A DNA stretch of 64,000 bases from Escherichia coli (GTDB lineage: Bacteria > Pseudomonadota > Gammaproteobacteria > Enterobacterales > Enterobacteriaceae). The DNA lies in assembly GCF_030384885.1 (NCBI RefSeq), contig NZ_CP128613.1, one strand, 5' to 3'. Position 1 is the stretch's first letter; every line of letters starts with the position of its first letter. A program made the position numbers and the translations under genes. This document shows, piece by piece, positions 16,606 through 18,666 of this stretch. A model generated the notes under the pieces. The model was not told the DNA's origin and searched no databases. It saw only the letters and a program-made list of their open reading frames with translations.

Positions 16606-16996
16606 TTTCCTCTTATTCTATATTTGAGATGGTGAGTGAACGAATGCGTTTTGCTGCCATCTCTGTCCCCCAAAAAATAATCAGTATGAATTGATTGGAG
16701 AGCACGACTCCGCTATTTGACCTTAAGAAAGTCGGCAAGTCATAGTCATAAATGAGTCTCTTCACTGGCAGACACCTTAAAGATTTACCATCAACTCCCA
16801 TTCTCAAACAAACATTAATTATTATCAACACATTCACATTAATTATAAATTACCTCAGACCTTCCTGATAAAAAGATATTAAAGTGAAACATTTTGTTTT
16901 TCACATTTTAGTTCATCCCTTTTAGGCGTAAATAAAGGTAAAAAATAACAATACTATTTTTCTTTCACAAAAAAATTAACAAAAGGTTTTTCAAGG

Positions 16997-18145
16997 ATGA
17001 GTGATATTATCTACCTGACCATAACCGGAGAACAACACGGATGTATTTCCTCTCGTTGTGGAACGAGCACATCAATAGGTAATCGCTGGCAGATTGGTCA
17101 TGAAGATGAAATCTTCGCATTCTCGCTCTCTAATAGTATTACGAATACAGGAAAAGGGTCACATTTGCATGGCCTTAGTTTCTGTAAGTTGATTGACAAA
17201 AGCTCCCCGTTACTTATTAACGCTATTAACAATAACGAGCAGTTGTTCATGGAGTTTGACTTCTATCGGATCAATAGATTTGGTCGATGGGAGAAATATT
17301 ACAACATTCAACTCCGCGGCGCGCTCTTATCAGCAATCAATCACCTGTTTACGGAGAACAATCTGGATACAGAAACCATCACTGTCAGTTATGAATATAT
17401 ACTCTCCAGGCATCTGATTGCTAATACTGAATTTAGTTATTTGGCATTTCCCGATAACTACAATCGTCTGTTTATACCACGGCCAAAAACTAAAGATGAT
17501 AATGGCCTCAAAACACTCAATAGTAAAGCTGTTGGCAGACTGCTTGCTGCTGGCGGCATATACAATGGGAATATCGAAGGATTCAGGGAAACAGCAAACA
17601 AGTTGGGGGGAGATGCACCTGCTGGTTACGATCAAGTTATGGATAACAAAGGGTTACTCATCGCTGGTGCTTCAATAGTTGCTGGAGCAGTTCTGGGGAG
17701 AATGAGACTCCCTGATTTGGAATCACTTGAGCATTTCGGAGCCAGAGGAGCAGTATCAGGAAGACCATTTAATCCCGACCTTGCCGGTGGTCCAATAGAA
17801 AATCTGACGACAGATGGCGTAACAATCAACAGGGAAGGTATCGCTATTGTTGAAAAACACATAGCCAGATTTGGTCATGACCCTGTAAATGAAGTGATGA
17901 TCAATAGACTGAAAGACATTGAGAAAGGAAAAATCCCCCCAGAACAAGTAGATCTTAACTTCTATACTCATGAATGTCGGGAATATCAGCGTTACTGTAA
18001 TCTTGGTTGGGAAACAGGACAACCTGATGGTGACGCAGGCTATGCACTCTGGAATCATACGCATACTGCTACTCTAGAAGATTATAAACTTAAGGGAGAA
18101 CTTAATGACTTATACCACCAGGACGCACTTGACTATGATAACTGA
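16997..18145 (+). CDS. Hcp (T6SS tube protein TssD) N-terminal domain fused to a C-terminal extension of unknown function, Hcp-ET-like; not associated with a T6SS gene cluster
   Basis: 382 aa; residues 1-155 carry the Hcp hallmark ...HGLSFCKLIDKSSPLLINAINNNEQLFMEFDFYRI...; residues about 156-382 are an extension with no Hcp counterpart; RBS AAGGA upstream; AT-rich. Confidence 0.75.
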   Translation: MSDIIYLTITGEQHGCISSRCGTSTSIGNRWQIGHEDEIFAFSLSNSITNTGKGSHLHGLSFCKLIDKSSPLLINAINNNEQLFMEFDFYRINRFGRWEKYYNIQLRGALLSAINHLFTENNLDTETITVSYEYILSRHLIANTEFSYLAFPDNYNRLFIPRPKTKDDNGLKTLNSKAVGRLLAAGGIYNGNIEGFRETANKLGGDAPAGYDQVMDNKGLLIAGASIVAGAVLGRMRLPDLESLEHFGARGAVSGRPFNPDLAGGPIENLTTDGVTINREGIAIVEKHIARFGHDPVNEVMINRLKDIEKGKIPPEQVDLNFYTHECREYQRYCNLGWETGQPDGDAGYALWNHTHTATLEDYKLKGELNDLYHQDALDYDN

Positions 18146-18380
18146 AACTGAAATTAACATACTGAAAGTTATGGCTGAGAAAGATATAAACTGGAACTGG
18201 ATGAATCTCGATCGCACACTATCTATAAGGCAAATTCCAGGATTCGGTAATGTTGTTAACATTGTTAACAAATTAGCTAACGAGGGTTTGGTTATTATTG
18301 AGGATAGCGGACATAAGTCTATGCCTCACTACCACGTTACTGATAAGGGATACAATCTCGTGAAAAGTGAGAATAAATAA
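18105..18380 (+). CDS. Small protein overlapping the 3' end of the Hcp-fusion gene; candidate cognate immunity protein (alternative start at 18135)
   Basis: 91 aa ORF with GGGAG RBS; overlaps the upstream stop, typical of toxin-immunity pairs; no recognisable family. Confidence 0.5.
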   Translation: MTYTTRTHLTMITETEINILKVMAEKDINWNWMNLDRTLSIRQIPGFGNVVNIVNKLANEGLVIIEDSGHKSMPHYHVTDKGYNLVKSENK

Positions 18381-18528
18381 CGTAGCGTTGATTACTGAAC
18401 AAATCGCTCAGGATTATATTTTGCGAAAAAAATGATTCGGTTATTTCTGTGTCTGAACGGCCGCAGATAGCAAAATGGCTTCCGGTGATGGAAGCCATCA
18501 GATTATTGGCAAAGTGCGTGTTGTTCAT

Positions 18529-18559
18529 GCCGGATGCGGCGTGAACGCCTTATCTGGCC
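18529..18559. repeat. REP element (GCCGGATGCGGCGTGAACGCCTTATCTGGCC)
   Basis: REP consensus palindrome downstream of metE. Confidence 0.55.
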
Positions 18560-18666
18560 AACTAAATCTTGAAAATTCAATAAATTGAATAAATTATGTA
18601 GACTTGGTATCAGGCAGTTTTGCCTCTTTCATCGTACTGCAATTTACAGTGACTCGTTAATACTCA

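Follow-up and report, generated by a model that had tools for sequence, protein, structure and literature searches.

For those type VI secretion system (T6SS) effectors that act in the cytoplasm, the route from the target cell's periplasm into its cytoplasm is largely unexplained. Implicated so far are only the glycine zipper of Tde1, the transmembrane domains (TMDs) found in prePAAR effectors and, on grounds of analogy, Pyocin_S. Here, a further candidate is described in a segment of the Escherichia coli chromosome of 64,000 nucleotides (hereafter the window, to whose positions all coordinates refer unless a locus is named). The gene at 16997..18145 on the plus strand (stop codon included), taken from the list of open reading frames (ORFs), encodes an effector of 382 amino acids, in which an N-terminal Hcp domain, a conserved module and a toxin domain at the C-terminus follow one another. 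The module ends in a short hydrophobic helix rich in small residues, and we would put at roughly 0.5 the probability that it is a portable element carrying cytoplasm-acting toxins across the inner membrane of the victim.

Pse3 and Pse4 of Pantoea agglomerans are, according to the text of the preprint, antibacterial effectors that the T6SS secretes and whose immunity proteins are encoded downstream (Carobbi et al., bioRxiv 10.1101/2023.07.16.549128). The same text reports that VgrG is bound by their N-terminal PIX domain (aa 1-140), which suffices for secretion, that deletion of aa 141-200 leaves T6SS secretion of both proteins unimpaired, and that Pse4 carries a Colicin_D domain while the toxin of Pse3, a protein of 348 aa, is listed as unknown. 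The region outside PIX that both share (aa ~141-213) is a true homologue of the module described here, since residues 142-217 of Pse3-like proteins match the module profile with an E-value of ~1e-49 and 77-80% amino-acid identity. The toxin and immunity protein of the pair Pse3/Psi3 are homologous to the window pair as well. The carrier is different, as PIX is a VgrG-bound cargo, whereas the window protein is a covalent Hcp fusion. Homology of the shared region had been noted in the preprint, but its text did not name or delimit the region, note the hydrophobic helix or assign a function. Residue numbers of Pse3 plus 29 give those of the window protein, and by our mapping the deletion of aa 141-200 takes away the three helices of the module together with 11 out of 16 residues in the hydrophobic helix. 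Since this deletion leaves secretion intact, any role of the module would lie after export.

The closest functional analogue is found in Tde1, a DNase effector from Agrobacterium, whose glycine zipper is needed for inner-membrane permeabilisation and delivery, not for secretion (Ali et al., 2023, PMC10240207). Both proteins possess a small-residue hydrophobic element of the GxxxG type outside the catalytic domain of a T6SS nuclease effector. Tde1, however, contains consecutive N-terminal GxxxG repeats (residues 12-51), which also bind the adaptor Tap1 (DUF4123), whereas in the window protein a single internal short helix follows a three-helix element. Its gene is neighboured by ysgA and metE without an adaptor gene, and no homology between the two proteins is detectable.

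The Pyocin_S/IMT domain (PF06958) is required for the inner-membrane import of pyocin G and occurs in T6SS nucleases (Atanaskovic et al., 2022, PMC9040868). Similar to the module, it lies between the delivery part and the nuclease and is tied to cytoplasm-acting nucleases in T6SS effectors. It is, however, an L-shaped β-sheet domain of ~140 aa, whereas the module comprises ~65 aa and is helical. PF06958 has no match in the window protein at E<=10, and the positive control, an Hcp fusion of the Hcp-ET3/4 type, was recovered with an E-value of 2.2e-40. This control is a protein of 593 aa from E. coli S103EC (locus L010, 3495-5276, adjacent to aroP), which carries Pyocin_S and Col-Pyo_DNase domains and is followed by three bacteriocin-immunity genes. 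It lacks the module, and Pyocin_S occupies the module's place.

The cytoplasm-entry domains of contact-dependent inhibition (CDI) use specific inner-membrane proteins as receptors. As found in CdiA-CT (PMC9086364), they govern passage of the target inner membrane and resemble the module in being modular, exchangeable sub-domains placed N-terminal to variable toxins; the secretion system is a different one, and no sequence or fold similarity to the module was detected. The prePAAR/TMD effectors with their Eag chaperones, which combine an N-terminal prePAAR motif, a PAAR domain and TMDs with a DUF1795 chaperone gene next to them, are unlike the window protein, which starts with Hcp and has no chaperone gene. 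Like the Hcp-ET effectors of Enterobacteriaceae, it joins an orphan Hcp of E. coli to a toxin at the C-terminus and is followed by an immunity gene, and the review sections summarising these effectors do not describe the module (including PMC6730261 and PMC6099711). No paper naming the module was found.

By this comparison the module would be analogous to the glycine zipper of Tde1 and would have its parallel in the Pyocin_S domain that a different Hcp fusion carries, and the best reading of the feature is an unnamed pre-toxin/translocation element of polymorphic T6SS toxins.

A module shared by several carriers and many toxins

The hydrophobic helix at residues 219-234 is the terminal element of a conserved module of ~65 aa, which extends over residues ~173-237. 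Here, three short helices (residues 173-216; 17513..17644, plus strand like all gene features given below) are followed by a Gly/Ala/Ser-rich hydrophobic helix of 15-16 residues and by an Arg/Lys cap, in the window protein R235-M236-R237 at 17699..17707, directly 3' of the helix; the variation between toxin families starts downstream of this cap. The three-helix part is delimited by conserved columns, predicted helices and the module profile and shows the motif TLNSKxxGRLLAAGGIYNGNxEGFxxTAxxLGGDAxxGYxQV, and the motif of the whole module reads TLNSK..GRLLAAGGIYNGN..F..TA..LGGDA..GY.Q..N...[hydrophobic 15-16]..R/K.

Used as a query, the C-terminal 235 residues returned 703 relatives. Between proteins with different N-termini the homology starts sharply at residue ~173 (K-T-[LI]-N-S-K) and takes in the hydrophobic segment. 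A module profile built from residues 170-246 (77 positions) and searched against 1.84 billion cluster representatives had 99 matching proteins, of which 89 scored E<=1e-10. Many of these matches end at positions 59-70 of the 77, just past the helix, with unrelated sequence beyond.

Five types of carrier were found N-terminal to the module, namely Hcp, PIX (first seen by clustering as a 'MLHHYQAKS' domain), DUF8093 (PF26362-type), VgrG and a PAAR-like domain, the last of which bears a more divergent copy of the module. On the C-terminal side, clustering placed the module before at least 24 unrelated domain groups. As the module is common to several carriers, the segment is not a peculiarity of the Hcp linker, as which the preliminary description had presented it. 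The true Hcp-specific junction corresponds to residues ~148-172 (17438..17512), because homology across carriers begins only at residue ~173. Nor is such a segment unusual inside an Hcp protein, as had been supposed, since YhhZ of E. coli K-12 (392 aa) consists of Hcp, the module (residues 171-238; profile E-value 1.8e-31) and an HNH domain. Among 5426 complete E. coli genomes, 3864 (71%) contain module-like DNA, counted when the match takes in the first half of the module or more. At least 80% of the module is covered in 823 of these 3864, and the YhhZ-type matches reach only the first half at DNA level. Scanning the complete protein, the module alone and the toxin alone with Pfam and NCBIfam revealed nothing besides Hcp, even at E<=10, and no PDB match for the module was obtained.

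The module is under strong purifying selection. Its synonymous sites are saturated between genera, with a proportion of synonymous differences (pS) of 0.62-0.86 in most pairs, while the proportion of nonsynonymous differences (pN) is 0.04-0.17 among module copies of the same type; where it was computable, the ratio of nonsynonymous to synonymous divergence (dN/dS) is ~0.05-0.08. The nucleotide identity of the module between loci amounts to 54-86% (68-77% between the window and loci of the same type), and the amino-acid sequence is kept. Saturated synonymous sites together with retained amino acids indicate that conservation acts at the protein level and does not merely reflect a DNA homology handle.

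The domains behind the module are small (80-200 aa). Using Pfam scans in which a single protein stood for each C-terminal group, seven of them could be named: HNH, Colicin_D (a tRNase), Tox-HNH-EHHH, cytidine deaminase, Endonuclease_NS_2, EndoU, whose representative sits on a VgrG carrier, and Ntox17. All seven attack nucleic acids, which for Ntox17, a predicted-toxin family, is our own reading. Two more groups match only DUF6883 and DUF4258. No lipase, amidase or muramidase is among the nameable domains; a periplasm-acting toxin domain is present in none of the 99 module-bearing representatives, none of which is long enough to hold one. A PIX-based profile search of genome contigs yielded three loci, all with the module.

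The immunity proteins show a corresponding picture. In 11 of 11 immunity-type ORFs downstream of the toxins, belonging to nine toxin families, there is no stretch resembling a signal peptide or a transmembrane segment (maximal Kyte-Doolittle mean over 15 residues, KD15, <=1.53), and by their sequences these 11 neighbouring proteins look cytoplasmic. The immunity candidate of the window has a maximal KD15 of 1.15 and no hydrophobic segment. Thus, the module exists within defined boundaries and under constraint, is independent of carrier and toxin fold, and within the examined set is tied exclusively to small toxins that seem to act in the cytoplasm.

The hydrophobic helix

Located at 17651..17698, the helix GLLIAGASIVAGAVLG comprises the 16 residues 219-234 and was delimited by hydropathy, conservation and structure prediction. 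Its KD15 of 2.27 is the highest in the protein, in which only two 15-residue segments reach >=2.0. This value exceeds that of almost every soluble ORF in the window, where KD15 is mostly <=2.1, and falls below the true membrane proteins of the window, where values of 2.4-3.5 are found in many segments. The small-xxx-small spacing occurs as G219xxxA223, A225xxxA229 and S226xxxG230xxxG234. The last of these satisfies the glycine-zipper pattern (G/A/S)xxxGxxxG; an alternative form is GxxxGxxx(G/S/T). For the definition of this membrane motif, PMC10240207 refers to Kim et al. (2005).

The preliminary description had located this segment within 1-2 nt of the coordinates given here, had called it a small-residue, hydrophobic stretch with GxxxG-like spacing, and had placed it between the Hcp domain, which ends at residue 147, and the C-terminal domain, which covers residues ~247-382. 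All of this holds, and the observation is confirmed as real and non-random. Among 105 homologues the residues G219 (100), I222 (102), A225 (101), S226 (105), G230 (101) and G234 (105) are near-invariant, so that the helix is not a chance feature. The consensus of these homologues is KGLLI[AT]GASVAAGLTMGRMRF, from which the window copy departs by AVL instead of LTM at positions 231-233, making it more hydrophobic than most homologues. In 69 cluster representatives the uncharged, apolar stretch is 15-16 residues long in 59 cases and 17-22 in the other 10, with small residues making up ~60% of it. The hydrophobic character and the length of the helix are kept even where the sequence diverges. An R or K directly follows the hydrophobic stretch in 62 of these 69 representatives, and the 10 residues upstream of the helix are net negative in 44.

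The transmembrane propensity of the window helix is borderline, as seen from its 16 apolar residues, a Kyte-Doolittle mean over 19 residues of 1.62 and a Wimley-White octanol sum over 19 residues of +0.7 kcal/mol. Such marginal hydrophobicity makes sense for a protein that has to remain soluble in the attacking cell with no chaperone to help it, and no chaperone or adaptor gene is present at the loci examined.

Structure prediction with AlphaFold2 (AF2) gave a mean predicted local distance difference test score (pLDDT) of 60.7 for the full-length protein, with residues 141-172 below 50. A second model of residues 165-382, built from a mixed alignment including module-only rows of other toxin families, reached a mean of 81.9. 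Both models are in agreement. In the C-terminal one the three helices 177-190, 193-203 and 207-216 have a pLDDT of 86-94, and the toxin domain is all-alpha with block means mostly between 88 and 97. The hydrophobic segment is predicted as a short helix of residues 224-232 in the full-length model (pLDDT 25-31) and of residues 221-232 in the C-terminal model (pLDDT 48-60). Unlike the three-helix part and the toxin, it is left unpacked in these predictions. The preliminary description had suggested such a model as a check, in which a buried β-strand or core helix would have spoken against a membrane role; what AF2 predicts is neither of these but a short helix of low pLDDT.

A proposed inner-membrane passage and its alternatives

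Concerning the mode of action, we infer membrane insertion in a given orientation, followed by translocation. The module would take no part in loading or secretion. Once the T6SS has deposited the effector in the periplasm of the target, the marginally hydrophobic helix would partition into the inner membrane and insert, leaving its acidic or polar N-terminal flank outside, while the Arg/Lys cap would be drawn inward by the membrane potential. The conserved small-residue face formed by G219/A223/S226/G230/G234 may then find its packing partner in its own copies or in the helices of a protein of the inner membrane. In this way the toxin domain that follows, with its modest size of 80-200 aa, would be carried into the cytoplasm. 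In a more specific and more tentative form, the module could be a portable, self-contained cytoplasm-entry cassette of the T6SS toxins of Enterobacterales, which would represent a third solution besides the Pyocin_S/IMT domain and the Tde1 zipper, with the helix docking into the membrane or onto a specific inner-membrane protein of the prey.

Several points weigh against a translocation role. The helix is too short and too weakly hydrophobic for a classical transmembrane helix, and over the representatives the mean Wimley-White octanol value is +1.9 kcal/mol. The strict pattern (G/A/S)xxxGxxxG is found in only 40 of the 69 representatives, so that the zipper is not universal. Only in 29 of them are the 10 residues downstream net positive, which makes the charge asymmetry a tendency and not a rule. 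The packing of the helix was judged from pLDDT. That same-carrier effectors with periplasm-acting toxins (PIX-lipase, PIX-transglycosylase, Hcp-ET2) would lack the module is supported indirectly, by the 99 module-bearing representatives. Furthermore, some cargo may be delivered by a T6SS directly into the cytoplasm, in which case no translocation module would be needed.

The alternative that survives best, improbable as it appears, is a passive spacer or loading aid, which would tether the toxin, keep it compact or partly unfolded, for example in the Hcp lumen, or bind the carrier or a chaperone in the attacker. This would suit a module that always lies between carrier and toxin and whose helix is flexible in the AF2 models, and packing constraints do exist, as a ring presumably has room for just one extended Hcp (PMC13323088). 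However, deletion of the equivalent region does not affect the secretion of Pse3 and Pse4, and the module occurs on carriers that are loaded at different places, the tube lumen and the spike. The loci examined hold no gene for a chaperone or adaptor that it could serve, and the near-invariant residues together with the dN/dS of 0.05-0.08 exceed the needs of a spacer by far.

Two further explanations appear somewhat less likely, both to a similar degree. In the first, the module would only be a recombination boundary, namely a homology handle for swapping toxin-immunity cassettes comparable to the VENN motif of CdiA or the end of the Rhs core, without a biochemical role. The breakpoint from conserved to variable sequence right after the helix, the combination of at least 24 toxins with five carrier types and the frameshift junction inside the helix at the Candidatus Pantoea locus L008 (see below) all fit this explanation. 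Against it stand a nucleotide identity as low as 54% and at most 86%, the synonymous saturation and the retention of the protein sequence, although both roles could coexist. A handle acting at the DNA level only is rejected by the dN/dS values. In the second, the helix would not insert by itself but would be a site recognised or cleaved in the target by a protease or quality-control factor of its inner membrane, FtsH for instance, which processes and frees the toxin. FtsH is needed for the import of nuclease colicins and of pyocin G (PMC9040868), and the toxins joined to the module include Colicin_D and HNH domains. There is, however, no similarity to the Pyocin_S domain, and such a site would be a variant of the translocation idea more than a true alternative to it.

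The preliminary description had pointed to membrane-inserting or pore-forming effectors as proteins in which such segments occur. In the corresponding reading the segment itself would be toxic, inserting into the membrane, forming pores and depolarising the target cell. The membrane part of this idea stands, as a membrane-related role is also the best reading here, but an autonomous pore-forming toxin is unlikely, and the chance of it is smaller still than that of the preceding explanations. The glycine-zipper pattern and the hydrophobicity would agree with a pore, and the N-terminal zipper region of Tde1 alone, when over-expressed, permeabilises the inner membrane of E. coli (PMC10240207). 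In the window protein, though, only a single short and marginal helix is available, and what is attached to the module are nucleases, deaminases and toxins of that kind. The immunity proteins, which are small and soluble, vary together with the C-terminal toxin and not together with the module. Since one module is shared among many immunities, toxicity borne by the module would leave sister cells unprotected. T6SS toxins of the Tse4/Ssp6/VasX/Tme type have a membrane-active toxin domain and a membrane-associated or periplasmic immunity protein. The window protein is unlike these pore-forming toxins, as it is accompanied by a soluble immunity protein of 81 aa and possesses a separate, confidently folded toxin domain. 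Finally, a buried core helix of a globular toxin domain is effectively refuted. Small-residue helices do often pack tightly in protein cores, but AF2 does not confidently pack this one, and an identical type of helix before at least 24 unrelated toxin folds cannot be an element of the toxin core.

The effector locus, its relatives and their significance

In near-identical E. coli genomes the effector gene is annotated as tssD. The exact locus was seen in 845 genomes, and the public protein cluster holding the exact protein of 382 aa has 1511 members. A frameshift (2013C-4282) or an insertion of IS2 or IS903B disrupts the gene in related genomes. The Hcp (TssD) tube-protein domain covers residues 1-147 (16997..17437), where PF05638 matches residues 6-135 with an E-value of 3.6e-14 and TIGR03344 residues 1-147 with 2.9e-35; here, the PDB Hcp chains 6a2v and 3he1 match as well, and the AF2 model is beta-rich. 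Thus, as in the Hcp-ET proteins, an N-terminal Hcp/TssD domain is joined to a C-terminal extension of 235 aa, where 120 aa or more were taken as enough for a toxin domain, and followed by a downstream ORF that is homologous across genera. Ma and colleagues reportedly described an Hcp-ET1 'HNH-DNase' in the journal Virulence in 2017, which could be the window protein or a YhhZ-type paralogue. Secretion and antibacterial activity have been demonstrated only for the homologous toxin on the PIX carrier (Pse3).

The C-terminal toxin domain (residues ~247-382; 17735..18142) is all-alpha in the AF2 model and a homologue of the Pantoea Pse3 toxin. It is 71-77% identical to Pantoea proteins of 348 aa, which correspond to Pse3 of the preprint (bioRxiv 10.1101/2023.07.16.549128). 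Neither a Pfam or NCBIfam match at E<=10 nor a PDB fold match was found for it. The conserved residues are H288, R291, D295, N298, D319, H325-E326-x-x-E329, W352, N353, H356 and H374. The names 'HNH endonuclease' and 'colicin', which NCBI gives to fragments of the toxin, are rejected, because there is no HNH profile match at E<=10 and no PDB fold match, and the all-alpha AF2 model is not a beta-beta-alpha-Me (His-Me finger) fold.

The putative immunity gene, annotated as a hypothetical protein, encodes 81 aa from the ATG at 18135 (18135..18380) and overlaps the stop codon of the toxin. Its start is ambiguous, as a longer ORF begins at the ATG at 18105. A small ORF homologous to this candidate follows the same toxin in Cronobacter, in Pantoea and on one plasmid. 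Some records name it 'MarR family transcriptional regulator', for which the winged-helix matches are weak (E-values 0.025-0.15).

Effector and immunity gene lie in an islet of ~1.9 kb, which was recognised from the composition profile (16620..18560) by a GC content of 32-45% against ~54% in the flanks. It is inserted between ysgA and metE in the gene order udp-ysgA-tssD-hyp-metE. Downstream of the immunity gene, at ~18520-18560, the palindrome gccggatgcggcgtgaacgccttatctggcc resembles repetitive extragenic palindromes or bacterial interspersed mosaic elements (REP/BIME). The 1.9-kb query has a median of 11 matching places per E. coli genome, which is probably explained by this palindrome.

Relatives are found on mobile elements as well. 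The module is encoded on 453 plasmids, 432 of them predicted to be conjugative, mostly from Enterobacter, Salmonella and Klebsiella. On the IncHI2A plasmid pN17S1352-1 from Salmonella Heidelberg (locus L019, 3578-5155) a PIX-module-HNH gene and an immunity gene of the YrhA family form an orphan T6SS effector-immunity pair on a conjugative plasmid, adjoining the transfer genes for TraG-N and a lytic transglycosylase. A search of a phage collection for a phage-borne relative, as in the link between Tde1 and tape-measure proteins, gave as its sole match a mis-filed contig of a Salmonella genome. In Candidatus Pantoea varia (locus L008, 2501-3500) a frameshift inside the hydrophobic helix divides a Pse4-like PIX-module-Colicin_D gene, and the toxin is left as a separate ORF. 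In E. coli K-12 MG1655 the immunity protein of YhhZ is YrhA, and yhhZ-yrhA is followed by IS1 (locus L009, 2501-4092); the strain carries this pair even though it has no T6SS.

The presence of the module in YhhZ of K-12, in Pse3/Pse4 and on IncHI2 plasmids could make its mechanism and any receptor reachable by simple genetics. If the proposed role is true, Pse3/Pse4, YhhZ and the Hcp-ET protein of the window would provide a tractable model for inner-membrane crossing by T6SS effectors. The module would then also serve as a sequence marker for new cytoplasm-acting toxins and their boundaries, and as a handle for engineering the T6SS delivery of heterologous cargo. Should the translocation role fail, the module would still be an unannotated domain that deserves a family entry.

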